Shown here piece by piece: positions 666 to 48,675 of a stretch of DNA of 64,000 nucleotides (positions are counted from its first letter, which is position 1; each line of letters starts with the position of its first letter). Where the stretch lies: NCBI GenBank assembly GCA_009692615.1, contig SHYW01000001.1, forward strand, positions 14,348 to 78,347, given 5' to 3'. The stretch is from Deltaproteobacteria bacterium (GTDB taxonomy: Bacteria > Desulfobacterota > Binatia > UBA9968). Position numbers and translations under genes: made by a program. The notes under the pieces were generated by a model, which searched no databases, was not told where the DNA came from, and saw only the letters and a list, made by a program, of their open reading frames with translations.

Positions 666-1310
666 TCATTTCTCCATGATCACGACTGAATAGCCGGCTT
701 GGCTCACTTGACGCGCCTGCTCTTCGGCGGCGCCGCGGTTGGCAAAGTTGCCGAGATGGACGCGGTAGTAGGTGTTGTCTTTCGACTGCAAGGTGTTGAT
801 CGTCACGTTGGCGTAGGATTTGGCGAGACGCTCGCGCAGCTGCTGGGCATTTTCCAACTGTGTGAACGAACCCATCTGCAAGGTGTAGTCGAGTGACGAG
901 CGAATGGTCTCGATGCGCGTCGGGCTACCGAGGACATCGATGCGCACCAGCGCCGTGCCGGGGCCGACCATCTTGATCGATTGCGCCGCCGCGTAGGAGA
1001 GATCGATGATGCGATTCTTGGCAAACGGGCCGCGGTCGTTGACCAGCACTTCAGTCGTGCTGCCGTTTTCCAGATTGGTCACCATGACCTTGCTGCCCAG
1101 CGGCAGCGTCTGATGCGCCGCGGTGAGTTCGTTTTGATCGTAAATCTCGCCGCTGGCGGTGGCTTTGCCGTGAAAGCCGGGACCATACCAAGAAGCGATA
1201 CCGGTTTGGCTGACGCGACTGTCCGAAGTGGGCGGCGTTACTTTGGAGCCAGTTATCGAGCAGCCGGCGATTAGCGTCAGGGCGAGAAGGAAGAGTGTTC
1301 GGCGCATCAT
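666..1310 (-). CDS. rlpA: Septal ring lytic transglycosylase RlpA family lipoprotein (DPBB domain + C-terminal SPOR domain)
   Basis: Lipoprotein signal MMRRTLFLLALTLIAGC. DPBB motif GIASWYGPGFHGKATASGEIYD...NDRGPF. C-terminal SPOR-like region (YRVHLGNF...). The ORF-track start at 1358 probably over-extends; MMRR at ~1310 is the likely start. Confidence 0.8.
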   Translation of the reverse strand: MMRRTLFLLALTLIAGCSITGSKVTPPTSDSRVSQTGIASWYGPGFHGKATASGEIYDQNELTAAHQTLPLGSKVMVTNLENGSTTEVLVNDRGPFAKNRIIDLSYAAAQSIKMVGPGTALVRIDVLGSPTRIETIRSSLDYTLQMGSFTQLENAQQLRERLAKSYANVTINTLQSKDNTYYRVHLGNFANRGAAEEQARQVSQAGYSVVIMEK

Positions 1311-1533
1311 TTTTATCTCGACAAGAGTTTCTAAATTGCGGCTGGGGATTTGCTTCATTGCCGGGAGTATAGCGAAAAGCGCCGCGGGTGAAAAGTATTT
1401 TGCCAGTTAATCGTTATGCTGAGCAAATTATTTAAGCCGCGCGGTGCTCGTGGTCTCGACCGGCTTCGTGCTAGTTTACCCAAGCATGGCTTTGTGTTAG
1501 CGTACTCGCACCTTGAACAGGAGTGTCTAAAGT

Positions 1534-2280
1534 ATGTCGGGTCATTCGAAGTGGAGCACGATCAAGCATAAGAAGGCCGCCAAGGACGCCAAGCGGGGCA
1601 AGGTCTTCACCAAGTTGATCAAGGAAATCACCGTAGCGGCGCGCATGGGCGGCGGCGATATCAACGCCAATCCGAGATTGCGCACGGCGGTGTTGACCGC
1701 GCGCGGCAGCAGTATGCCGAGCGACAACATCGAGCGGGCGATCAAAAAAGGCACCGGCGAGTTGGAAGGGGTGACCTACGAAGAAATTCAATACGAAGGC
1801 TACGGCCCAGGCGGCGCGGCGATCATCGCCCAGGTTTTGACCGACAATAAGAATCGCACAGTCTCCGAGATCCGCCGGCTGTTCAGCAAGCATGGCGGCA
1901 ACATGGGTGAGACCGGCTGCGTGTCGTGGATGTTCGAGAAGAAAGGCATAATCGGCATCGACAAGTCGCAGATCGACGAGGATCGCTTGATGAGCATCGT
2001 GCTCGACGCCGGCGCCGAGGATGTGCGCGACGAAGATGAGATTTTCGAGGTCGTCACGCAGCCGGAAGACTTCGCCACGGTCAAAGAACGCTTGGATCAG
2101 GAAAAGATCGCCGTCACCAGCGCCCATGTGACCTTGGTGCCAAAAAATACCGTCGACATCGATGCCAAGCATGTCGAGCAGATTCTCAAACTCAGTGAAG
2201 AGCTGGAAGATCATGACGATGTCCAGAACGTGTCCGCCAATTTCAATATTTCCGACGAGCTGATTGAGAAGGTCAGCTAG
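1534..2280 (+). CDS. yebC: YebC/PmpR family DNA-binding transcriptional regulator
   Basis: [37 protein letters not shown] is the canonical YebC N-terminus. Lies upstream of ruvCAB as in many bacteria. Confidence 0.9.
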
Positions 2281-2285
2281 CCCAA

Positions 2286-2855
2286 GTGGCCGACGCGACG
2301 AAGCAAGAGCCGCCGCGCATCATTCTCGGCATCGACCCAGGCACGGTCATCACCGGCTGGGGCGTGGTTCAGGTGATCGGCAGTGCTTTGCGCCATGCCG
2401 GCCACGGTACGATCAATTCTTCCCAAGCCGAGCCCCAAGCGGTGCGCTTGAGCCGGATTTTTAACGGCTTGACCAAAGTGTTGCGCGAGTACCAGCCAGA
2501 CGGCGTCAGTCTGGAGAAAGTGTTCTTCGCCCTCAACGTTCAGAGCGCATTAAAATTGGGCCAGGCGCGCGGTGTGGCGTTGCTCGCCGCGGCCGAACAG
2601 GGAATCGACGTCCACGAATATGCCGCGGTGGAGATTAAATCGGCGGTGGTCGGTAACGGCCACGCGACCAAGCAGCAGGTGCAAATGATGATCGGTTCGC
2701 TGCTGCGCGTGTCGGGGCGAGTCCCGGTGGATGCGGCCGATGCCTTGGCTGCGGCGATCTGTCATCTCAACCGGCAGAACTTCCAAGCCCGCGTGGCCGA
2801 GGCGCTGCCGAAGCGGCCGACGCCGATTCGTCCGCGCGGTACGCGCGTGCGTTAG
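2286..2855 (+). CDS. ruvC: Crossover junction endodeoxyribonuclease RuvC
   Basis: ILGIDPGTVITGWGVV start, RuvC catalytic Asp/Glu pattern, position in ruv operon. Confidence 0.9.
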   Translation: MADATKQEPPRIILGIDPGTVITGWGVVQVIGSALRHAGHGTINSSQAEPQAVRLSRIFNGLTKVLREYQPDGVSLEKVFFALNVQSALKLGQARGVALLAAAEQGIDVHEYAAVEIKSAVVGNGHATKQQVQMMIGSLLRVSGRVPVDAADALAAAICHLNRQNFQARVAEALPKRPTPIRPRGTRVR

Positions 2856-2878
2856 CGTTAACTTAGCGACCGCGTCTT

Positions 2879-3499
2879 TTGCGCGGTGCAACCTCTTTTA
2901 CCATCGTGATCGCACAAATCAGCGGCCAGCTGGCGCAAAAACTTCCCGGTGAGATCGTCGTCGATGTCGGCGGCGTCGGCTATCAAGTGTTCATCCCGCT
3001 AAACGTCTTTTACCGGCTGCCGGAGATCGGCGCCGACATCAAATTGCAGATCCACACCCATGTGCGCGAGGATTCCTTGCAGCTGTTCGGCTTTCACGAT
3101 GTCGGCGAGAAGCAAGTTTTTTTGCTGCTCACCAGCGTCTCGGGCATCGGCCCCAAGCTGGCGCTGAATATTCTTTCCGGCATTCCCGCCGATGATTTGG
3201 CGCGGGCGCTCAAGGACGGCGATCAAGTGCGCTTGGTGGCGATCCCCGGCGTCGGCAAAAAACTCGCCGAGCGGATGATCGTCGAGCTCAAGGACAAATT
3301 CGCCTCCCTAGCGCCGTTTACGCTCGACGTGCCGAAGTCGGCGGTCGCCTCGCAGCTGCTGCTCGACGCGGTTTCCGCCCTGGTCAATCTGGGCTATAAA
3401 AAACCTGACGCGGAAAAATATGTCGGCGATGCGCTCAAGAGCGGCCACCACACGTTGGAAAGCGTCTTGAAAGAGACCTTGCGCCGGCTGAGCTTTTAA
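2879..3499 (+). CDS. ruvA: Holliday junction branch migration protein RuvA
   Basis: IAQISGQL...[14 protein letters not shown] and HhH motifs [29 protein letters not shown]. The true start may be the GTG at ~2906. Confidence 0.9.
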
Positions 3500-3516
3500 C
3501 TATTGTAGTTCTATTC

Positions 3517-4536
3517 ATGCAAGACGGTGAGCGCACTGACGAAGATTTGGGTTTTGAGCTGAGCCTTAGGCCGCGCGGCTTCGACGAATACGTCGGCCAA
3601 GAGCAGGTCAAGGAGAATCTCAAAGTCGCCATCGCCGCGGCCAAGGGGCGACACGATGTGCTCGACCATCTGCTCTTTCACGGCCCGCCGGGGTTGGGCA
3701 AAACTTCGCTGGCTTATATCATCGCCAGAGAAATGGGCGTGAATATCAAAGCGACCTCCGGTCCGGTGGTCGAACGGGCCGGCGATCTGGCGGCGCTGCT
3801 GACCAATCTCGAGGATGGCGACATTCTTTTCATCGACGAGATTCATCGCCTCAATCACGTTGTCGAAGAAGTCCTCTATCCGGCGATGGAGGACTATCAG
3901 ATCGATCTGATGATCGGCCAGGGGCCGGCGGCGCGTTCGATCAAGCTCGATTTGAAACGCTTCACTCTGATCGGCGCGACCACGCGCTCGGGGCTTTTGA
4001 CCTCGCCGCTGCGCGATCGCTTCGGCCATATTCATCGCTTGGATTTCTACGATGCCACCGCTCTGACGCGGATTCTCAAACGCTCGGCGGCGATTCTCAG
4101 CGTCGCCGAAGAGGGCGACGGCATCGCCGAAATCGCCGCGCGCTCGCGCGGCACGCCGCGCATCGCCAATCGCTTGCTGCGCCGGGTGCGCGACTACGCC
4201 CAGGTCAAAGGCCGCGGCATCATCACAAAGAACATCACCGACGAGGCGCTGCGCATGTTGGCGGTCGACCATCTCGGTTTGGATAAGATGGATACCATGC
4301 TGCTCTTGACGCTGATCGACAAGTTCGCCGGCGGCCCGGTAGGAGTTGAGACCTTGGCCGCCGCCATCGGCGAAGAGCGCGATACGATCGAAGATGTTTA
4401 CGAGCCGTTTTTGATTCAGGCCGGCTTCATCCAGCGCACGCCGCGTGGGCGCATGGCGACGGTGTTGGCCTACGAACACTTCGGCCGCCAGCAGGGCGCC
4501 GCGCCGGCGCCGAAAAAACAACCGACGCTGTTTTGA
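3517..4536 (+). CDS. ruvB: Holliday junction branch migration DNA helicase RuvB
   Basis: Walker [16 protein letters not shown], Walker [11 protein letters not shown], RuvB C-terminal winged helix. Confidence 0.95.
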
Positions 4537-4554
4537 TGATCGTGGGAGTGGGCG

Positions 4555-4776
4555 ATGGCAGGATTGGGCAGATTGCTAATTTATCTGGGCTTGGCTGTGG
4601 CCGGCGTCGGGTTGTTATTATCGTTCGCGTCAAGGCTGCCGTGGCTGCGCTGGCTCGGCCATTTGCCCGGCGATATCGCCATCGAGCGCGAGAATTTTTC
4701 TTTTTACTTTCCCTTGGTCAGTTGTATGCTTGTCAGCGCGATCATTTCGCTGATCGTTTATTGGGTCAAAAGGTAG
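4555..4776 (+). CDS. DUF2905 family small membrane protein
   Basis: 73 aa with two TM segments and the motif GHLPGDIAIERENFSFYFPL typical of DUF2905. Confidence 0.6.
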   Translation: MAGLGRLLIYLGLAVAGVGLLLSFASRLPWLRWLGHLPGDIAIERENFSFYFPLVSCMLVSAIISLIVYWVKR

Positions 4777-4802
4777 TCCCACTGTTGAGCTAGGCCGAGC
4801 CG

Positions 4803-7043
4803 ATGGAAGCTGCAAGTCCGGTAAATAACGTGGAGCAATCCCGCAAATTCGAAGAAACCAAGCGCCGTAGGCGCGAGGCCGTCGTCATTTTCGTGACCAC
4901 CGTCATCTTGGTGGCGCTGATTTATTTCGAAGTGCAGTTGCCCGAGGTCGTGCCGGAATATACCCTGGGCAGCAATATCGTTTTCTTTCTGGTGATCAAC
5001 GTCACGATCATCCTGCTTGGCTTGCTGGTGTTCTTAGTCGTACGCAATGTCGTCAAGCTGGTCTTCGAGCGTAGACGGGGCATCCTCGGTTCGAGATTGC
5101 AGAGCCGTCTGGTCATCGCGTTCGTCGGCTTGTCCTTGGTACCCTGCGTGCTGCTATTCGTCATCGCCGGCGGTCTGCTGACCCGGTCCTTCGACCGTTG
5201 GTTCGACATCAAAGTCGAGAGCGCGCTTCAAGGTTCGTTGGAAATCAGCCAGACCTACTATCAAAATTCCGCCAACAACGCGATTTTTTACTCGCGCCAG
5301 TTGAGCCGGGCGATTAGCCGCGAACGATTGTTCACCGCCGATAACGCCGCGCAGCTGAAAGAATTCATCGAACGTAAGCAGAAAGAATATAATCTTGGCA
5401 CGGTGACGCTTTATTCCCCCGACGGCCGATCCTTTGCGGTGGCGTTCAACGAGCGGGTGCCCACTGGCGTCACGGTGAAACCGGCGGGGGATTTACTGAC
5501 CCGGGCGCTGCGCGGTCTCGATGGCGCCAGCACGCAGGTGTTCGGCGACGCCGATGTGATTCGCGGCGCGGCGCCGATCTATGGCGACGAGAAACGGATT
5601 ATCGGCGCGGTGGTGGTCGACTACTTCGTGCCCAAGAGCGTCAGCAAGCGGGCGTCGCAAATCTCGCAATCCTATGAGAATTATAAATACCTGAGCTTCC
5701 TCAAGACCCCGGTGAAAAACAGCTATATCCTAACGCTGTTTTTGATGACGTTGGTGTTGGTGCTGGTGGCGACTTGGTGCGGCATTTATCTGTCGCGCGG
5801 GATCATCGTGCCGATTCAAAAACTCGCCGAGGGCACCCATGAGGTGGCCCAGGGCAATTGGGATTATCAGATCGAGTCGGGCGGCGACGACGAGCTCGGC
5901 GTGCTGATGAACTCGTTCAATCATATGACCGGCGATCTGAAGCAGATCAAGCTCGAACTGGAACGGCGCGGAAAAGCGGTGGAAATGTTGCTCGCCAACA
6001 TCGCCGCCGGGGTTGTGTCGGTGGATACGGCGGGCAAGATCACCACCTGGAATAAAGCCGCGGAAAAGGTTTTGGGTGTCGCGGCGCTAGACGCCATGGG
6101 CAAACATTATCAAGAAGTCTTCCGCGCCGAAGGTCTGGGGACGATACGCGAGATCGTCGAAACCATCGAGAACGTTTCCGGGCCGCGCAGCATCGAGCGC
6201 GAGATCAAGATTCCGTCGGCCCAACAGGTGCTCACGGCGGTGGTCAGCGCCGCGACGCTGCGCGACGACGCCGAGCTGACCCTCGGCATCATGATTTTCC
6301 TAGAGGACATTACCGAAATTAAAAAAGTCCAGCGCATGGAAGCCTGGCGCGAAGTGGCCCAGCGCATCGCCCATGAGATCAAAAACCCGCTGACGCCGAT
6401 CCAGCTTTCCGCCGAACGCCTGCGCAAGCGCTACTCCGAACTGCTCAAAGAGGACGGCGCGATTCTCGACAAGTGCACCACCACGATCATTCAACAGGTC
6501 GACGAGCTGAAAAATCTGGTCAACGAATTTTCCCAGTTCGCGCGCTTGCCATCGGCGCAGCTGTTGTCCAACGATCTCAACGAGGTTGTCAACGAAGCGT
6601 TGTTTCTGTTCAAGGAAGGGCACAACGGCATCGACTTTGAGTTTCGCGGCGGGGTGATTCCGCCGGTGGAAATCGACCGCGAGCAGATCAAGCGCGTACT
6701 GATCAATTTGCTCGACAACGCGGTGGCGGCGGTGCAGGGCGGCGGCGCGATCAAGCTGGCGACGGTGTATGATCCACGGCGTGCCGTGGTGACCCTGGAT
6801 GTCGCCGACGACGGTTGCGGCTTGGCGCCGGACAGCCGCGCGAAAATTTTCGAGCCTTACTTTTCGACTAAGCACAACGGCACGGGACTTGGGCTCACCA
6901 TCGTCAGCCAAATCATCGAGGACCATCGCGGCTACATTCGCGCCCTGCCGAATCAGCCGCGCGGCACGCGTTTTACCATCGAGTTGCCGGCGGCCAACGG
7001 CGCCGGGCCGCTCGATTCGGCGAAAAAAGTGTTACACTCATAA
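4803..7043 (+). CDS. NtrY-like sensor histidine kinase (multi-TM sensor, HAMP, PAS, HisKA, HATPase_c)
   Basis: Three N-terminal TM helices, a ~200 aa extracytoplasmic region and a fourth TM. HAMP (IVPIQKLAEGTHEVAQGNWDYQIE). PAS (LLANIAAGVVSVDTAGKITTWNKAAEKVLGV). H-box HEIKNPLTPIQLSAERLRKR. G1/G2 boxes DDGCGL...GTGLGLTIV. Confidence 0.8.
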   Translation: MEAASPVNNVEQSRKFEETKRRRREAVVIFVTTVILVALIYFEVQLPEVVPEYTLGSNIVFFLVINVTIILLGLLVFLVVRNVVKLVFERRRGILGSRLQSRLVIAFVGLSLVPCVLLFVIAGGLLTRSFDRWFDIKVESALQGSLEISQTYYQNSANNAIFYSRQLSRAISRERLFTADNAAQLKEFIERKQKEYNLGTVTLYSPDGRSFAVAFNERVPTGVTVKPAGDLLTRALRGLDGASTQVFGDADVIRGAAPIYGDEKRIIGAVVVDYFVPKSVSKRASQISQSYENYKYLSFLKTPVKNSYILTLFLMTLVLVLVATWCGIYLSRGIIVPIQKLAEGTHEVAQGNWDYQIESGGDDELGVLMNSFNHMTGDLKQIKLELERRGKAVEMLLANIAAGVVSVDTAGKITTWNKAAEKVLGVAALDAMGKHYQEVFRAEGLGTIREIVETIENVSGPRSIEREIKIPSAQQVLTAVVSAATLRDDAELTLGIMIFLEDITEIKKVQRMEAWREVAQRIAHEIKNPLTPIQLSAERLRKRYSELLKEDGAILDKCTTTIIQQVDELKNLVNEFSQFARLPSAQLLSNDLNEVVNEALFLFKEGHNGIDFEFRGGVIPPVEIDREQIKRVLINLLDNAVAAVQGGGAIKLATVYDPRRAVVTLDVADDGCGLAPDSRAKIFEPYFSTKHNGTGLGLTIVSQIIEDHRGYIRALPNQPRGTRFTIELPAANGAGPLDSAKKVLHS

Positions 7044-11079: not shown

Positions 11080-12240
11080 ATGAGCAACTATCCCAAAGTG
11101 GTTTTGACCGAAGAAGGCATGCGCGACGGTTTGCAAATTGAGCGCGCCGATATTCCTGTGGCGGGGAAGATTCGTTTGCTCGATATGTTGTCCGAGACTG
11201 GGCTTAAAGACATTGCCGTCGGTTCTTTTGTCAGCCCGCGCTGGGTGCCGCAGATGGCGTGCATCGACGAACTGGTCAAAGGCTTTCATCCCAAGCCCGG
11301 CGTCAGCTACACGGCGACGGCGTTGAACGACATGGGCCGGGAGCGCTTGCGCCAATATATTCCGCCGTTGAACGATCTCAAATATCAGGCGCAGACCGCG
11401 GTGTATCTGTGCGACGTGTTCGCTCAGCGTAATATCAACCGCACCATCGCCCAGCAAATGGCGCGCTGGCCCAAGGTGATCGACGAAGCCAAAGCGAAAA
11501 GCGCAAAGGAAGCCGGCATCAGCGTCAGTGCGGCGTGGGGCTCCAACTGGACCGGCCAAGTGTCGCAGGAAGACCGCATGAAGATGCTCGATCGCCAATA
11601 TCAACTTTGGGACGCAGCGGGGATTCCCGTCACCAAGATCGGCATCTCAGATCCGATGGGCTGGAACATGCCGGATCAAGTGGAGCGCCAGCTCGAAGCG
11701 ATTAAAAAACGCTGGCCGGCGATCAAGAGCTTTAACTTACATTTGCACAACACCCGCGGCATGGCGCTGACTTCCTCCTACGTAGCGATGCGCAACTTGG
11801 ATGCCAGCGACACCATGCGCTTGCAGCCGGCCATCGGCGGCATGGGCGGTTGTCCGTTTTGCGGGAACGGCCAGTCGGCGGGTTTGGCGCCGACGGAAGA
11901 TTTGATTCACATGATGGACGGCATGGGCATCGACACCGGCGTCGATCTCGACAAGTTGATCGAGGCGGTGTGGGTCGCCGAAGAGTTGGTCGGTCATCCG
12001 CTGTGGGGTCATGTGTCGAAGGGGGGACCGCGGCCGAGCGGCAAAAAACTTTACTCGATGGACATGCCGTTCGTCGAAACCCTCGATCATGCGCGCCACT
12101 TCATCAAAGGCGCCGCGGCGTACAAGGACGCGCCGTCGCCGTGGAAAGAAACGATCAAAAGCCCGCAGCGTCCGGAGACGATGAACGGCGATGCAGCGAA
12201 ATCGACTTCAGAGCAGAGCGGGCGCTGGCTGCCGTTGTAG
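11080..12240 (+). CDS. Hydroxymethylglutaryl-CoA lyase-like (DRE-TIM metallolyase) family protein
   Basis: EEGMRDGLQ (EVGPRDGLQ-type motif). HLHNTRGMA metal-binding motif. TIM-barrel aldolase layout. ~80 aa C-terminal extension. Confidence 0.8.
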   Translation: MSNYPKVVLTEEGMRDGLQIERADIPVAGKIRLLDMLSETGLKDIAVGSFVSPRWVPQMACIDELVKGFHPKPGVSYTATALNDMGRERLRQYIPPLNDLKYQAQTAVYLCDVFAQRNINRTIAQQMARWPKVIDEAKAKSAKEAGISVSAAWGSNWTGQVSQEDRMKMLDRQYQLWDAAGIPVTKIGISDPMGWNMPDQVERQLEAIKKRWPAIKSFNLHLHNTRGMALTSSYVAMRNLDASDTMRLQPAIGGMGGCPFCGNGQSAGLAPTEDLIHMMDGMGIDTGVDLDKLIEAVWVAEELVGHPLWGHVSKGGPRPSGKKLYSMDMPFVETLDHARHFIKGAAAYKDAPSPWKETIKSPQRPETMNGDAAKSTSEQSGRWLPL

Positions 12241-34126: not shown

Positions 34127-34344
34127 GGAGCCTCCTTAACTGCTGTGAACTTTTCTTATCTCAAGCTGGTGGCGATGGGAAGCTTTGGCAAGCGTTTTGA
34201 CCCGCGTCGCGGCAAATCAAGAGACATCGCTGAAATAAAATGTTATCCTTACGTCTAATCGATAACCACCCCGGCCAAGGTGTCGGCAATAATGAAAGGG
34301 ATAACCTGGAGTACCAGCTAGAGCTTATGAATCTTAAAGCAGAA

Positions 34345-35487
34345 ATGAATTCGATTAAATTTCTTCAATGGCTTCGTTTGAGTGTCGTAGTCGGGTTGCT
34401 GCTGGCCGGTCGGGACAGCCAAGCGGCGGGCACAGAGCCACAAGAGTTTAACCGGCGTGCCACGGCCACGGCGCAGTTGCTGGCCGGCATCATGCCCAAT
34501 CCTCCTGAGCCTGCGTTCAATCGCTTTACCGAACTCGATGCTTGGAAAGAGCATCAAAAATGGATGACCAGTCAATGGGCTTTGGTGCGCGGCCGGCTCA
34601 ATACCATGGAAACGTGGCGCGACCACGAAGTGAAAGTCACCGGCGCTGCGAAAAAGACCATGCTCTACCCGTTCAGCGGCCCGGACTTTATCAATGCCTA
34701 TGCGCTGTTTCCCGATCACGCGCGCTATGTGTTTTTCAGTTTGGAGCGGCCCGGCGCGCTGCCCGACATGGAATCGGTAACCACGGTGCAGTTTATTAAA
34801 CTACTAACCGACGTGCGCGGCGCCTTTCGCGACATCTTCGAGCGTAATTATTTTATTACCTCCTACATGACCAAGCAGCTGACCACGCCGTGGGTGCGCG
34901 GCACGGTGCCGGTGATGGCGACCATGATGGCGTTGATGAACCGGCGCATCGTGCGCATCGAACCCATCGATTTATTTCCCGAGTTGAACCGTGCCTACGA
35001 CACTCCAGACGCCAAGCGGCCGCGCTTGTTGCTGCGCGGCGTGCGCGTCGACTTCGCCAACCCGGCCGCGGCCGGAATTCAGCAGCTTTATTATTTTTCC
35101 TTGGACGCCACGGATAAAGCGCTCGATTATTATCCCGAGTTTCTCAATTGGGTCGGCCAGTACAAACCGGCCACCGCGCTGATCAAGTCGGCATCCTACC
35201 TGTTACATGATGGCCAGTTCGCCAAGACTCGGGCGACGATTTTGGAATCAGCCGATTTAGTCGTGCAGGACGATACCGGGATACCTTACCGCTTTTTGAA
35301 TCAAGCGCCCTGGCATGTGAAGTTGTTCGGCAGGTACAGCAAGCCGATTCGGCCGATGGAATACGCCTATCAAAAAGATCTCGAAAGCGCGTTCAAGGCC
35401 GCTCCCGACCAAGCCGACTTGCCGTTCCCGTTCGGCTATCATTGGCGCAGCAAACAATCGGCTTTGATGTTGGCCCATCGTCAGTAA
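34345..35487 (+). CDS. Hypothetical secreted protein (signal peptide, ~380 aa, no recognised domain)
   Basis: N-terminal MNSIKFLQWLRLSVVVGLLLAG signal. No family recognised from sequence. The ORF-track start at 34240 is probably upstream of the true start. Confidence 0.5.
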   Translation: MNSIKFLQWLRLSVVVGLLLAGRDSQAAGTEPQEFNRRATATAQLLAGIMPNPPEPAFNRFTELDAWKEHQKWMTSQWALVRGRLNTMETWRDHEVKVTGAAKKTMLYPFSGPDFINAYALFPDHARYVFFSLERPGALPDMESVTTVQFIKLLTDVRGAFRDIFERNYFITSYMTKQLTTPWVRGTVPVMATMMALMNRRIVRIEPIDLFPELNRAYDTPDAKRPRLLLRGVRVDFANPAAAGIQQLYYFSLDATDKALDYYPEFLNWVGQYKPATALIKSASYLLHDGQFAKTRATILESADLVVQDDTGIPYRFLNQAPWHVKLFGRYSKPIRPMEYAYQKDLESAFKAAPDQADLPFPFGYHWRSKQSALMLAHRQ

Positions 35488-35491
35488 TCGA

Positions 35492-36358
35492 GTGAGAGCT
35501 TCGCCGGCGCTTTTCCTGATCGGAGCTTGTCTCGCCCTTATGGCGCAAAGCTGTGCCACGCAAATCTCTCGACGCACCTTTCAAACCAGCGACGGCGTGA
35601 CGCTATCGCTGCTTGAAGCCGGTTCGCAACACACGAAGGATTCCAATATCACCATCGCGCTGATCACCGGCTGGTCCATGCCGGCGGCGATCTGGCAAAA
35701 TCAAATCGAACATTTTAGCCGGCGGTATCACACCCTGGCGCTTGACCCGCGCGGCCAAGGCGAGTCGGAAGTGCCGGCGGCTGGTTTCACCGCGGAGCGG
35801 CGCGCCGCCGACTTACAAGAATTTCTTGCGCCATTAAAAAACGTCTTGCTGGTCGGCTGGTCGCTCGGCGCCATCGAGTCGCTGCAATACCTTCACATGT
35901 TCGGCGCCGAACGGCTGGCCGGTCTAGTATTGGTCGACAGTTCGGTGGGCGAAGAACCGGCGCCGGCGCCGGGCGGGACTTTTTTACAGGCGCTGCGCGA
36001 CGAGCGCGACAAAACTCTCGACGGGTTTGTCCGAGCGATTTTCAAGAAACCGTTGAGCGAAGATGAAGTCGCGCGTTTAATCGGCGGCGCCAAGCGCATG
36101 CCGGTGGAAAGCAGTATCGCGCTGTTGTCCTATCCGTTTCCGCGCACACACTGGAAAGAAATCGCCCACGCATTTAAAAAGCCGCTGCTTTATGTGGTAA
36201 CGCCGCAGTTTGAAGAGCAGGCGCAAAACCTGCAGAAGAACCGGCCTGGGACGCAGGTAGAAGTTTTCAAAGACGCCGGCCACACTTTGTTCGTCGATGA
36301 AGCGGAGCGTTTCAACGCGCTGATTGAGAAATTCGCTGCATCGCTGTCGCGCCGTTAA
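35492..36358 (+). CDS. Alpha/beta hydrolase fold protein (secreted)
   Basis: Signal peptide. Nucleophile elbow GWSLG. Asp/His in C-terminal half. Confidence 0.8.
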   Translation: MRASPALFLIGACLALMAQSCATQISRRTFQTSDGVTLSLLEAGSQHTKDSNITIALITGWSMPAAIWQNQIEHFSRRYHTLALDPRGQGESEVPAAGFTAERRAADLQEFLAPLKNVLLVGWSLGAIESLQYLHMFGAERLAGLVLVDSSVGEEPAPAPGGTFLQALRDERDKTLDGFVRAIFKKPLSEDEVARLIGGAKRMPVESSIALLSYPFPRTHWKEIAHAFKKPLLYVVTPQFEEQAQNLQKNRPGTQVEVFKDAGHTLFVDEAERFNALIEKFAASLSRR

Positions 36359-36452
36359 TCTCTAGCTTTCACCTTCCAGACCCTTTAGGGTCGGCACCTG
36401 TACGAGCTGACAAGAAGAGTTAGCGCTAGCGGACCAAGGTGAGGCAACTAAT

Positions 36453-37037
36453 ATGGTCAAATTATTTTGTCCGAACATCGTTGCCCGATTAACTTTTTTG
36501 ATTGTCTTCGCGACCACTTTCGCAGGCTGTCAGGATAAGTGGAAGGCACCCTGGCGACTAGATTCAAAGTACTCAGACTATCTGACAACAATGGCATGGG
36601 ATTATAAAATGATTGCAGGGCACGGCAGTGCTAACACGGTTGATGGCATGCTTATCTATAAGATAGGAGATAAAATTCCAAATGGGGCGAATCGAATTTT
36701 TAGTCTTGAAGAACTTTTTGAGCGGGACATTCTATATGAGAGCCGTGACAAGGAATTCATCCGAAAGTTTTTGGAAGCCGCGCAAGACGAAGTCAAGCCT
36801 ACGCCTACTGAAGCATGCCAAATTGATTGGAACGAAGCATCTTTACATGTGATTCTACTCGACAATACGTTTATGAGAGCAGGTTATTTCATATTTAGGA
36901 CATGTAAAAATGCGGACAACGGAACTGTGTTTACCATGCGCTTTACTCATTATCGCACAAAGTCGTTAGTTCCACTGATAAGGGCAATCGACCCTGTGCT
37001 GCATCACGATCCGCAGTTGCCATTATCCACGCGTTAG
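36453..37037 (+). CDS. Hypothetical lipoprotein encoded in a low-GC islet
   Basis: Lipobox FATTFAGC. The gene is ~45% GC against ~62% for neighbours. No recognisable domain. Confidence 0.5.
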   Translation: MVKLFCPNIVARLTFLIVFATTFAGCQDKWKAPWRLDSKYSDYLTTMAWDYKMIAGHGSANTVDGMLIYKIGDKIPNGANRIFSLEELFERDILYESRDKEFIRKFLEAAQDEVKPTPTEACQIDWNEASLHVILLDNTFMRAGYFIFRTCKNADNGTVFTMRFTHYRTKSLVPLIRAIDPVLHHDPQLPLSTR

Positions 37038-37039
37038 CT

Positions 37040-37290
37040 CGGGAACTGGTCGAAAGATTTTTCGCCCCTATAATAACTCCTTCGTCTGCTTCGTATCTTC
37101 CTGGTGAAATCTACGGCTCGCGGAACAGCCTTCGTAGGATGTGGCGACCGCAGGGAGCCGCATCGTCGGTAAATCGCGCGTGCTCGATGCGGTTCGCGGA
37201 CTCACCGCATCCTACGAGAATCCCTGCGTGTTCTTCGTGCCTTCGTGGTGAAATATGCCGTTGTCGAACGCTACGGTTCGCCGAACAGCC
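37040..37290. repeat. Complex repeat region: CTTCGTG-octamer tracts, internal hairpin, and direct duplication of the amidohydrolase gene 3' end
   Basis: A ~50 bp direct repeat (..CTTCGT..GGTGAAAT..CTACGG.TCGC.GAACAGCC) at ~37072-37122 and ~37222-37285 flanks an inverted repeat (CCTTCGTAGGATG ... CATCCTACGAG). The second copy overlaps the stop region of gene 37271..38434. Confidence 0.6.
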
Positions 37291-38434
37291 GCACGGTGTT
37301 GTCGTAGAGCAGTTTTTGCTTTTGCCTTTCGGTCAGATCCTGCCGTTCGAGGATTTCCAACGCGGCGTTGTCTCTGCCTTCGCCGTGGGGGAAATCGGAG
37401 GAGAACAGGACGTGGTCTTCGCCGATCAATTCGAAGAGCAAGTGGAGCATGCGATCGTCGGCTTCGGCGGCCATGAAGATTCTCCCCGACTTCACATATT
37501 CGCGAATGCTCGCCCGCGGCAGTTCGCCGGCGTTGGGCATGCTCAGGCCAAACGGGTGAGCGCCGCGGTCGAGGGGCAAGTAATGATCCATGCGCGAGAC
37601 CATGTAGAAAATCCATTCGGCGCCGAATTCGAGAAACGCGACTTTCAAATCCTGATAGCGGTCGAGCAAGCGGTGGCCGACGATGGCCATGAAGGCCAAC
37701 TGTGCAGGTAGCGACATGCCGATGATGTGGCAGTCGTAAATGCTCCGTCCCAACTGCGCCAGCGGCGGATAGCTCATGCCCATGTGCACGCAGAGCGGCA
37801 GCTTCGTACGCGCGAACTTATCCCAGATCGGCAGAAAACTCGGATCGGAAAGCAGCCGTTCGCCGGCGGTGCCGAAGACCACGGCTGCTCTGGCGCCGAG
37901 CCGCTGCATCTCTTCGATAGCGGCCAAGGCTTCGCGCGGCTCGCGCAGCGGTAATAAGCCCGACCATTTAAGCCAGGTCGGATTGGCCGCGCATTGTTTG
38001 GCGATGTAGCGATTGTAAGCGCGAAACAACGCGGCCTCGAATTCCGCATCGCTGGTCATATGCGCATAAAGCGTGCTGGGAAACAACATCTGAGCGTCGA
38101 AGCCCATGCGCTCCATGTCGGCCAGCCGCGCCTGGGGATCGTTGAGCGTCATGCTGCCGACCGAACAGTGCTCGCGCTTCATATCGGCGCCGAATTCGCT
38201 CAGCACGTTGCGCGGCGTGTTCGCCTGCTGGGCGCCGGGACCAAGCGCGTGGGGTTCGAGCGACCCTTCGATCAACCAACCGGCGTTGAAATTTCCCAAA
38301 CCGGTTTCGTCGTGCACCGTCACCGGCCGCGGCCGGCGCGCACGAAACTGTTCGGGGAGGTCCTCCCACATACGCGGATTGATCGAGCCATGGGCGTCGG
38401 CGTCAAATACTCGGTAGCCTTGAAGCATAATCAA
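37271..38434 (-). CDS. Amidohydrolase family protein (amidohydrolase_2, PF04909)
   Basis: TIM-barrel metal-dependent hydrolase pattern (DADAHG..., HMGMSYP, FSSDFPHGEG). Paralog of 40836..41864. Confidence 0.8.
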   Translation of the reverse strand: MIMLQGYRVFDADAHGSINPRMWEDLPEQFRARRPRPVTVHDETGLGNFNAGWLIEGSLEPHALGPGAQQANTPRNVLSEFGADMKREHCSVGSMTLNDPQARLADMERMGFDAQMLFPSTLYAHMTSDAEFEAALFRAYNRYIAKQCAANPTWLKWSGLLPLREPREALAAIEEMQRLGARAAVVFGTAGERLLSDPSFLPIWDKFARTKLPLCVHMGMSYPPLAQLGRSIYDCHIIGMSLPAQLAFMAIVGHRLLDRYQDLKVAFLEFGAEWIFYMVSRMDHYLPLDRGAHPFGLSMPNAGELPRASIREYVKSGRIFMAAEADDRMLHLLFELIGEDHVLFSSDFPHGEGRDNAALEILERQDLTERQKQKLLYDNTVRLFGEP

Positions 38435-38480: not shown

Positions 38481-38564
38481 GTTCACCACGAAGCGCACGA
38501 AGGACACGAAGGGTTCGGATAATTTAATCTTCAACCTTCGTGATCTTCGTGTCCTTCGTGGTGA
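38481..38564. repeat. Hairpin element with CACGAAG-octamer stems and GTTCGGATA loop
   Basis: TTCACCACGAAGCGCACGAAGGACACGAAGG - GTTCGGATAATTTAATCTTCAA - CCTTCGTGATCTTCGTGTCCTTCGTGGTGAA. Between the amidohydrolase gene and the SBP pseudogene. Confidence 0.75.
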
Positions 38565-38581
38565 ATATCCTGTCTCATCGT

Positions 38582-48041: not shown

Positions 48042-48347
48042 TCAGGCTGCGCGTTTTCGTTTTGGGCGTGGGGTAAAATGAATGGCGATACCAACGGCAT
48101 CCAAAATAGCCGCAAGTGATGAAAACTTTGGATTACCTTTTTCAGATAGCACGCGGTAAAGATTCTCGCGATTGAGCGCGGTTAGCTTCGAAAGTGCTCG
48201 AACTCCTCCTCCAGCTTCAACGACGTTACGAAGCCCGACAAAGAACACTTCTTCGGAGTCGTGGTAACAAGCATTAAGATATTCCGCGGCTTCATTGGGA
48301 TCGCGGAGCTGTTTGAGTAGTTCACTTTGATAGCTTCTTGTCGGCAT
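48042..48347 (-). CDS. Putative addiction module antidote protein (HigA-like, TIGR02684-type HTH)
   Basis: DPNEAAEYLNACYHDSEE...GGVRALSKLTALNRENLYRVLSEKGNPKFSSLAAILDAVG matches the family consensus. Lies downstream of and overlapping the killer gene. Confidence 0.7.
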   Translation of the reverse strand: MPTRSYQSELLKQLRDPNEAAEYLNACYHDSEEVFFVGLRNVVEAGGGVRALSKLTALNRENLYRVLSEKGNPKFSSLAAILDAVGIAIHFTPRPKRKRAA

Positions 48348-48675
48348 GATATTCCCTCCACAGTTTTTTGGCCTGCGCGATATCGCGCTTCTGCGAACCT
48401 TTGTCGCCGCCGCAGAGCAGCACAACCAAAAACAATCCATCAGGGCCGAAGTACACCCGGTATCCTGGGCCAAAGGCAATGCGCAATTCATGGACGCCGT
48501 CGCCGATGCTTTTGGAGTCTCCCAGGTTTCCGAGGCGAACACGGTCGAGTCGTGCGCGAATGGTGGCTCGCGCCTTTATGTCCTTGAGCTGATTTAGCCA
48601 ATCGAGAAACGGTATTTTTCCATCGATTGCCTCATAGATGAGAAGCTGCCGTTCCACGCGTGAATCGTAGCTCAA
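48322..48675 (-). CDS. Type II TA system RelE/ParE-superfamily toxin (addiction module killer protein, HigB-like)
   Basis: KIPFLDWLNQLKDIKARATIRARLDRVRLGNLGDSKSIGDGVHELRIAFGPGYRVYF is typical of TIGR02683. Toxin-first gene order. Confidence 0.75.
   Translation of the reverse strand: MSYDSRVERQLLIYEAIDGKIPFLDWLNQLKDIKARATIRARLDRVRLGNLGDSKSIGDGVHELRIAFGPGYRVYFGPDGLFLVVLLCGGDKGSQKRDIAQAKKLWREYHADKKLSK

Follow-up and report, generated by a model that had tools for sequence, protein, structure and literature searches.

Our analysis suggested that a small AT-rich islet in contig SHYW01000001.1, from a metagenome-assembled genome (MAG) of a "Deltaproteobacteria bacterium", is what remains of a toxin cassette of the colicin M (ColM) type. 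The open reading frame (ORF) of the islet lies at 36453..37037 of the 64-kb stretch of DNA that was analyzed (hereafter the window, whose numbering is used unless another locus is named). It would encode an orphan immunity lipoprotein that resides in the periplasm and acts against toxins that cleave lipid II, an interpretation that comparisons of sequence and gene order make likely. The original prediction for this stretch had described an orphan lipoprotein that was possibly acquired recently and might serve as a niche or defense factor. A defense factor is most likely what it is, in the form of interbacterial immunity.

The ORF is on the + strand, spans 585 bp from an ATG start and encodes 194 amino acids (NCBI MSP36902.1, EXR70_00245). 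Its guanine-plus-cytosine (GC) content was 43.4%, and 44.6% at third codon positions (GC3), against a mean of 57.6% for the window. The predicted low-GC islet was thus real, as no other 585-bp stretch of the 64 kb had a lower GC content (z = -4.8), but the background had been put too high, at about 62%. Among 59 non-overlapping ORFs, this one ranked last for both GC and GC3 (GC3 z = -3.2), while the neighboring genes had a GC3 of 67-77%. Its codon adaptation, calculated as an index similar to the codon adaptation index, was 0.48 compared with an ORF mean of 0.71, which bore out the atypical, AT-rich codon usage noted earlier. A change-point fit placed the AT-rich segment at 36445..37114 (43.4% vs. 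58.9% GC).

Export of MSP36902.1 as a lipoprotein was supported by its lipobox pattern. The N-terminus reads MVKLFCPNIVARLTFLIVFATTFAG followed by C, and the predicted signal peptide (36453..36530, + strand) ends with the lipobox T-F-A-G-C, in which the predicted lipidated Cys26 is encoded at 36528..36530. This arrangement satisfied the PROSITE PS51257-type pattern, scanned as [^DERK]{6}[LIVMFWSTAG]{2}[LIVMFYSTAGCQ][AGS]C, so the clean lipobox of the original prediction stood. In lipoproteins generally, an n-region and an h-region are expected before a lipobox of the form [LVI][ASTVI][GAS]C, with the cysteine within approximately 15-35 residues, and the protein was judged to agree with this layout. 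The AlphaFold model of MSP36902.1 was confident, with a predicted local distance difference test score (pLDDT) of 88.9 and a predicted template modeling score (pTM) of 0.80. Searches of Pfam, NCBIfam and PDB sequences with the protein and its family profile returned no significant match, in agreement with the earlier statement that no domain is recognizable, and Foldseek with the model gave no significant structural match (best E = 0.024). DUF6139 was dismissed as an identity for the protein, the match being weak (E = 0.066, 13.6 bits vs. a cut-off of 27).

The protein was nevertheless not an ORFan, the sense in which it had been called an orphan. Seven close homologues with 59-84% identity were found, and an exhaustive single-sequence HMMER scan yielded 58 homologue clusters (at 50% identity) with E <= 1e-3, 21 of which had E <= 1e-10. 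The family is without database annotation, yet it is not an ORFan family. In the family alignment (A1, 35 members), a domain of approximately 150 residues was common to the members and followed an N-terminal hydrophobic segment; member length was 165-205 amino acids. The near-invariant positions W34, D37, L44, D64, I103, C122, D137, R142, G144 and C151 were all kept in MSP36902.1. A lipobox was present in 25 of 57 members, including all close homologues, and the others carried a signal peptide or a transmembrane anchor, so that every member was predicted to reach the compartment in which an immunity protein to ColM toxins would be needed, the periplasm. The two near-invariant cysteines fit an oxidizing compartment.

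Further searches added little to the membership. Of two scans of genome collections, the first was without a match and the second, over species-representative genomes, returned one locus from a Minwuiaceae MAG (L010); a metagenome scan with the family recovered only contigs that were already known, and tblastn against plasmids gave no match. Several loci carried more than one copy: L007 has a tandem pair, L010 and a second Minwuiales contig (L017) have three copies apiece, and L015 has multiple or tandem copies. Orphan copies occurred in the window, L001 and L015. The closest homologues outside the locus of the window had unrelated neighbors, including a methyltransferase, an IS200-like transposase and an Ig-like/Kelch protein. 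In L008, the transposase is an IS200-like Y1 enzyme with a C-terminal helix-turn-helix (920..1795), 140 nt 3' of the close homologue, a neighborhood that fits a mobile setting of this homologue. In L005 (1941..2514) and L006 (1893..2466), the close homologue was split by a frameshift into ORFs of 96 and 108 amino acids (P0010 and P0008).

ColM-type toxins beside family members

Distant family members were repeatedly found directly after toxin genes, often with the end of one gene overlapping the start of the next. In L010, one of three paralogues starts inside the stop region of a 282-amino-acid gene, whose product matched colicin M (PDB 3da3, E = 1.2e-3) over an alignment spanning the catalytic DKYDFN..HR region to the C-terminus; all eight PDB matches of this protein were ColM-family bacteriocins. 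Two toxin and family-member pairs, plus one extra member, were present in L017. In L014, a 1934-amino-acid fn3/Rhs-repeat protein (1211..7015), whose core ends at ...RIDPTGL (core terminus ...YNYSANSPVSRIDPTGL), continues into a ColM-type C-terminal tip of approximately 220 residues and overlaps the start of member P0040 by 4 nt. An orphan copy of this type of toxin tip precedes member P0066 in L016, and in P0062 a toxin tip and the family domain follow one another within a single gene call. In L010, both pairs of L017, L014, L016 and the fused P0062, the family member therefore occupied the position of an immunity gene, on the same strand and directly 3' of the toxin C-terminal domain. The bacteriocin-like partner toxins were approximately 260-280 amino acids long. 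No description of an Rhs-delivered ColM domain was found in the papers that were consulted.

A profile built from four tips of the partner toxins (A4) matched PaeM (4g75, 6.8e-15), colicin M (2xmx/3da3, 3e-12), syringacin M (4fzl, 6e-9), pectocin M2 (4n58, 1.2e-7) and pectocin M1 (8jc1, 3.5e-6); the sole match outside ColM was an unrelated lectin (E = 0.016). Because A4 matched every solved ColM-family structure, the partners of the family were taken to be ColM-type toxins. The Pfam ColM model (PF14859), used alone on a partner toxin, scored 13.3 bits, below the cut-off of 27. The partner toxins kept the (Y/F)-D-F core of the catalytic motif DxYDx5HR (P0062 and L017a have N for D) but varied at its first Asp and its His, with DDFDFN..KR, EPYDFD, DDYDFN..QR and QRYNFE. 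As the motif is in part non-canonical, cleavage of lipid II, the activity of ColM-type enzymes (PMC5821083, PMC8469651), can be regarded as predicted for these toxins. Deviant catalytic motifs have been reported in ColM-beta and hybrid toxins (PMC5821083).

In every locus examined, the toxin/immunity modules had a lower GC content than the host DNA. This low GC content fits genes that belong to a pool in horizontal circulation and are not yet fully ameliorated.

In the Minwuiales MAGs of L010 (8355..12580) and L017 (3251..7694), bacteriocin-like ColM proteins were clustered, with the immunity paralogues interleaved, and these ColM proteins had a common Pro/Gly-rich N-terminal region (...GSFGLLGP..PPRTAGLLGPS.P..). 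One further protein in L010 (11720..12580) had the same N-terminal region as its ColM neighbors and an unrelated C-terminal half, and was followed by a Sel1-repeat protein. Judging from this arrangement, the L010 cluster is a polymorphic-toxin locus with swapped tips. Another ColM-domain protein, P0071, was observed in L020 (930..6687) and L022 (909..1103), where it has a weak PF14859 match and a ...DPKGL boundary. It adjoins a primase and a phage-type integrase in an apparent integrative element. The gene after it encodes a 64-amino-acid membrane protein and not a member of the present family, and this points to a further type of immunity.

Origin, retention and alternative explanations

Remnants of such toxins were found in the clade of the window itself. 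Decayed 3' ends of ColM-toxin genes precede the close homologues in L005/L006 (84-86% identical, C-terminal half), L008 (79%) and L009 (84%). When all fetched loci were scanned with A4, a match of 74 amino acids (E = 1.5e-8) was obtained directly upstream of the frameshifted homologue in L005/L006; in L005, this toxin remnant ends ...DGGDWFNFNEGDR...PYWVWIVGSRSVSDSGTW and a stop. The decayed cassette of L005/L006, in which the truncated toxin lies upstream, is at another chromosomal site, between PrmA-like methyltransferase and rubrerythrin genes. The toxin tail upstream of the homologue in L008 reads ...PYWIWIIGSKSVSDSGTW and ...GQPYWIWIIGSKSVSDSGTW, and that of L009, at a contig edge, reads DSGTW before the stop. 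At the locus that L007 has in common with the window, a toxin tail ending ...GQPYWIDIVGSRSVQDSGT and a stop (final residues ...QPYWIDIVGSRSVQDSGT) precedes the first of the two copies. In the window, the last nine toxin codons (R-V-S-A-S-G-P-R-stop) are recognizable in decayed form at 36416..36442 on the + strand, from the DNA alignment A5, the translations and the relatives, with approximately 81% DNA identity to the L005 tail. The scan with A4 detected no toxin gene in the 64 kb.

The borders of the inserted unit could be drawn from the relatives. The native 3' flank of the upstream alpha/beta-hydrolase gene, which forms the left border of the islet (36359..36405, + strand), is common to L001 and L007 up to approximately GGTCGGCACCTGTAC, and the toxin-tail sequence starts after this point. 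Downstream of the immunity stop codon, there was no conservation between loci. The inserted unit therefore appeared to consist of the toxin tail and the immunity gene, and the toxin tail directly 5' of the ORF would mark its horizontal origin.

Gene order indicated that the insertion is not recent. In L001/L002, from a groundwater metagenome, the order is that of the window, with an M24 peptidase, Amdase, a 385-amino-acid protein, the alpha/beta-hydrolase, the immunity gene, Amidohydro_2, NMT1, NMT1 and Amidohydro_2, and the neighboring proteins were 83-95% identical to those of the window. The genes upstream in L007 are also those of the window and lead to two tandem copies of the immunity gene. 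In both L001 and L007, the orthologues are enclosed by the same alpha/beta-hydrolase and amidohydrolase genes as in the window. The synonymous divergence (dS) of the immunity gene between the window and L001 was 0.56, which falls between the lowest and highest values of the flanking genes (0.33-1.08). Because the gene is at the same locus in diverged relatives, with a dS like that of its flanks, the insertion would predate the split of the window, L001 and L007 lineages, and the gene would have been passed on together with its flanks. The earlier claim of recent horizontal acquisition was consequently half right, in that the foreign composition and the toxin tail speak for transfer, but the common locus and the dS do not allow for recency. 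Homologues of normal GC content at the same locus had been named as evidence that would overturn that claim. Homologues were indeed at the same locus, but these orthologues were AT-rich as well (45-47% GC), on contigs whose total GC content, with the orthologues counted in, was 52-57%.

The immunity gene evolved faster at the protein level than its flanks and is still under purifying selection. The ratio of nonsynonymous to synonymous divergence (dN/dS) between the window and L001 was 0.38, compared with 0.06-0.22 for the flanking genes; against the orthologues it was 0.23-0.38, and overall it was about 0.2-0.55, always below 1. An immunity family should also appear as orphans or arrays and evolve faster than its neighbors, and both were observed, the former in L007, L010, L017, L015 and the window. 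The frameshifted copy of L005/L006 is a further sign of an immunity gene. Replacement of the window allele by a paralogue was considered, as the window protein was 79-84% identical to non-syntenic copies and 65% identical to the syntenic copy of L001. It proved unnecessary because dS was approximately equal for all pairs (0.56-0.60), with the difference in dN only, which was lower toward the non-syntenic copies of L008 and L009.

These findings can be combined into a model. In an ancestor, a module composed of the 3' end of a ColM-type toxin gene and its cognate immunity gene would have entered the genome just after the alpha/beta-hydrolase gene. The toxin portion would then have decayed to nine codons, which may survive because the ribosome-binding site of the immunity gene lies in them; the Shine-Dalgarno-like AAGGTGAGG at 36436..36444, 8 nt before the ATG, is overlapped by the toxin tail. 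The immunity gene would persist as an orphan. We infer that it is expressed and that its product, once exported and lipid-anchored via Cys26, takes up its fold in the periplasm, where C122 and C151 probably form a disulfide. As there is no toxin gene in the window, the product would guard against the toxins of competitors, binding and neutralizing ColM-type toxins so that lipid II on the outer side of the inner membrane escapes cleavage.

Several points weigh against this model. With no toxin gene in the window, the current role of the protein would be defense against foreign toxins only, or none, and the immunity role of the whole family is deduced from gene context. The motif of the partner toxins departs from the canonical DxYDx5HR (D-D-F-D..K-R, E-P-Y-D and D-D-Y-D..Q-R). 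The tail in the window is only nine codons long, and its conservation may stem mainly from the ribosome-binding site. The residue at position +2 after the lipidated cysteine is Gln, which under the sorting rule of Escherichia coli would place a lipoprotein in the outer membrane and so at a distance from lipid II, though the rule may not hold in this lineage. Lastly, long retention at a conserved locus beside two exported or hydrolytic genes could reflect co-option for another role.

Co-option of the orphan for a separate envelope function is a more speculative possibility. The gene would then encode a domesticated envelope protein, once an immunity protein and now with a housekeeping or locus-specific role, perhaps working with the exported 415-amino-acid protein encoded upstream and the alpha/beta-hydrolase. 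Such a role would fit the stable order of + strand genes that the window, L001 and L007 have in common, as well as the distance of 94 nt between the hydrolase stop and the ORF with no convincing terminator between them. It is quite unlikely, as the closest homologues are found in unrelated contexts, the toxin-tail remnant points to arrival as a cassette, and both composition and evolutionary rate are sharply unlike those of the neighbors. The gene could also be a decaying relic, non-functional or unexpressed and simply undisrupted so far. Its cognate toxin has been lost, the L005/L006 homologue is frameshifted, dN/dS is above that of the neighbors and the codons are poorly adapted (0.48 vs. 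0.71). A relic is nonetheless unlikely, since the ORF is uninterrupted at this locus in three diverged lineages, is duplicated in L007, and keeps all near-invariant residues, a good Shine-Dalgarno sequence and a dN/dS of 0.23-0.55, well below 1, over a dS of approximately 0.6.

The strong compositional discontinuity, the lipobox and the lack of an annotated domain are what a recently acquired ORFan lipoprotein with a niche function would present, but many homologues, the conservation of the site in L001 and L007 alongside a dS like that of the flanks, and the specific functional context given by the association with toxin cassettes make this highly unlikely. Alternatively, the family may serve ColM-type toxins in an accessory capacity, for example as chaperones, secretion adaptors or lysis/release lipoproteins. 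In colicin operons, the genes for lysis lipoproteins are typically downstream of the toxin gene, so the position 3' of the toxin would suit this function equally. Lysis proteins have a length of approximately 45-50 amino acids, whereas this family has a folded domain of 150 residues, and many members have a plain transmembrane anchor and no lipobox. To our knowledge, Rhs toxins use no lysis proteins, and the toxin-less orphans and tandem arrays of L007, L015 and the window fit immunity rather than release; an accessory role therefore seems very improbable. An orphan immunity lipoprotein left over from a ColM-type cassette remains our preferred explanation.

Flanking genes and repeats

The genes on either side of the islet are host genes outside the cassette. 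Upstream is the alpha/beta-hydrolase gene (35492..36358, + strand, 58% GC), assigned from NCBIfam matches and from Abhydrolase_1/6 on the syntenic orthologues; its product was 83% identical to the L001 orthologue and 73% to that of L007. Downstream is an Amidohydro_2 amidohydrolase gene (37271..38434, - strand, 60% GC), with synteny and 93% amino acid identity in L001. Directly upstream of the hydrolase, at 34240..35487 (+ strand), is the gene for the 415-amino-acid protein mentioned above, which had 76-83% identity and synteny in L001 and L007 and no match in Pfam or NCBIfam. An internal, signal-like hydrophobic segment in the translation suggests a later start codon.

The hairpin between the hydrolase gene and the ORF, GACCCTTTAGGGTC at 36379..36392, had been predicted to be a terminator. 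That assignment was not supported, as the hairpin has a 5-bp stem and no T-tract, and a terminator scan called none there. It was partly conserved in the relatives. Folding of both intergenic regions was no better than that of shuffled sequences (z = -1.7 for the hairpin region), and an Rfam search of 35.5-39 kb returned nothing relevant.

The repeat cluster at 37067..37290, which adjoins the islet and lies outside it, was real and non-random. It comprises a direct repeat in two copies (37067-37130 and 37211-37290) and a 16-nt inverted repeat (37132-37147 and 37202-37217), and the second direct copy holds the 3' end of the amidohydrolase gene. The terminal codons and stop of that gene (LFGEP-stop, 37271..37290) are duplicated 160 nt downstream as LFREP-stop (37111..37130). 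Each copy adjoins a (CTTCGTG)n motif, with an 80-nt hairpin-forming segment between the copies, and the arrangement has the look of a segment duplicated in place or of a small insertion. The repeats were absent from the same intergenic position of L001, where the sequence was unrelated and could not be aligned, and their motif CTTCGTGGTGAA was also observed 5' of the amidohydrolase gene, both in the window and in L001-L003. The repeats can therefore be assigned to the amidohydrolase side. A boundary of the islet, or a miniature inverted-repeat transposable element, was considered and rejected, given that the amidohydrolase 3' end makes up one of the copies and that the relatives carry the motif in front of that gene as well. 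Of the repeat flank invoked by the original prediction, only the existence of the repeats was upheld.

The motif itself, (CTTCGTG)n-GTGAA, occurred in the window at 37089..37108, 37233..37252, 38482..38493 (- strand) and 38554..38565, and in the relatives at 12137..12148 of L001 and at 2995..3006, 3993..4004 (- strand) and 4088..4099 of L003. Six matches were found, compared with 0.26 expected by chance. In the window, the motifs bracket the amidohydrolase gene (37271..38434), and a palindrome with 31-nt arms extends over 38482..38565. The motif could be a repetitive extragenic palindromic (REP)-like element or a regulator-binding site.

Farther downstream, a small toxin-antitoxin pair was observed at 48042..48675 (- strand) in a patch of lower GC content. 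The ORF at 48042..48542 (51.6% GC) matches the antidote family PF21716 (dnstrm_HI1420; E = 7e-10) and overlaps the ORF at 48322..48675, which, judged from its sequence, is presumably an addiction-module killer of the HigB/RelE type.

Significance and relation to known immunity systems

ColM-type toxins kill through cleavage of lipid II, an essential and drug-relevant target. Several unrelated protein families have been recruited to provide immunity to them, by a mechanism that is still to be explained for colicin M itself (PMC5821083). An additional family would offer a tractable system for studying how lipid II-cleaving enzymes are blocked, with a confident model, conserved residues and natural partners that include an Rhs fusion. 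For annotation, it would provide a name and a rationale for "hypothetical lipoproteins" in environmental MAGs. The case also illustrates that a small AT-rich islet need not be a recent arrival and may instead hold an orphan immunity gene that is old and kept by selection. For work on bacterial antagonism and on toxins that target lipid II, the finding has moderate relevance; beyond that, it is ordinary.

The chances are about even that the family is an undescribed and structurally distinct ColM immunity family, not homologous to Cmi, PeiB or BmiB/PmiB, whose partners are small ColM bacteriocins and an Rhs tip in uncultivated soil and groundwater bacteria. If so, orphans kept at a fixed site across lineages would point to lasting selection by lipid II-targeting toxins in subsurface communities.

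Among known systems, TipC provides immunity to TelC, the lipid II phosphatase of Streptococcus intermedius (PMC6193138). The likeness extends to membrane anchoring, an extracytoplasmic location, a lipid II-cleaving target and a mixed alpha/beta fold with helices behind a beta-sheet. TipC2 (PMC6193138) and the model of MSP36902.1 were also alike in having only faint polo-box-like structural matches; the family was not matched to TipC. The Lipocone paper (PMC12419801) describes BamE-like membrane-anchored immunity proteins that accompany a "novel colicin M-like" toxin domain. These are rapidly evolving periplasmic immunity proteins, anchored as lipoproteins or by a transmembrane segment, against toxins that attack lipid head groups, including a ColM-like domain. 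The two-helix hairpin with three beta-strands and the relationship to BamE/SmpA_OmlA that mark this group were not found in the family. Uncharacterized small proteins and a lipoprotein from Clostridia/Ruminococcus (PDB 4Q0Y, 2MCT and 4R7R) had 9-16% identity with Foldseek scores that were not significant, and carry no functional information.

Known ColM immunity proteins are periplasmic and have a transmembrane helix or lipoprotein signal as their anchor; a pair of conserved cysteines is often present, and orphans are frequent (PMC5821083, PMC4661593, PMC5277000). The colicin M immunity protein Cmi is of the YebF type (Pfam PF13995, PDB 2XGL/4AEQ; PMC5821083), and orphan and unlinked copies of it are known, as they are here. 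The family had neither the Cmi/YebF (PF13995) domain signature nor that fold.

The likeness to BmiB and PmiB covers more features. These are the immunity proteins of the ColM-beta bacteriocins, namely the burkhocins M of Burkholderia and the syringacin M-type bacteriocins of Pseudomonas syringae (PMC4661593, PMC5277000, PMC5821083). As in the family described here, a periplasmic domain follows a transmembrane anchor, a Sec signal or, in PmiB, a lipoprotein signal, and two cysteines are strictly conserved. The gene is likewise 3' of a ColM-domain toxin on the same strand, orphans are frequent and no Pfam domain is assigned. Compared by description, the proteins differ in length, with approximately 100 (PmiB) and 126 (BmiB) amino acids against 165-205 here. 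They also differ in distribution, as BmiB and PmiB are known only from beta- and gamma-proteobacteria and with soluble bacteriocins, whereas this family was found in uncultivated "Deltaproteobacteria" and Minwuiales MAGs with one Rhs partner. For the orphan bmiA and bmiB genes of Burkholderia, protection against the toxins of competitors has been proposed (PMC4661593), the same role that we suggest for the orphan in the window. The functional class, a periplasmic, membrane-anchored and often orphan ColM immunity protein, is therefore already known, and what would be new is an unannotated family within it.

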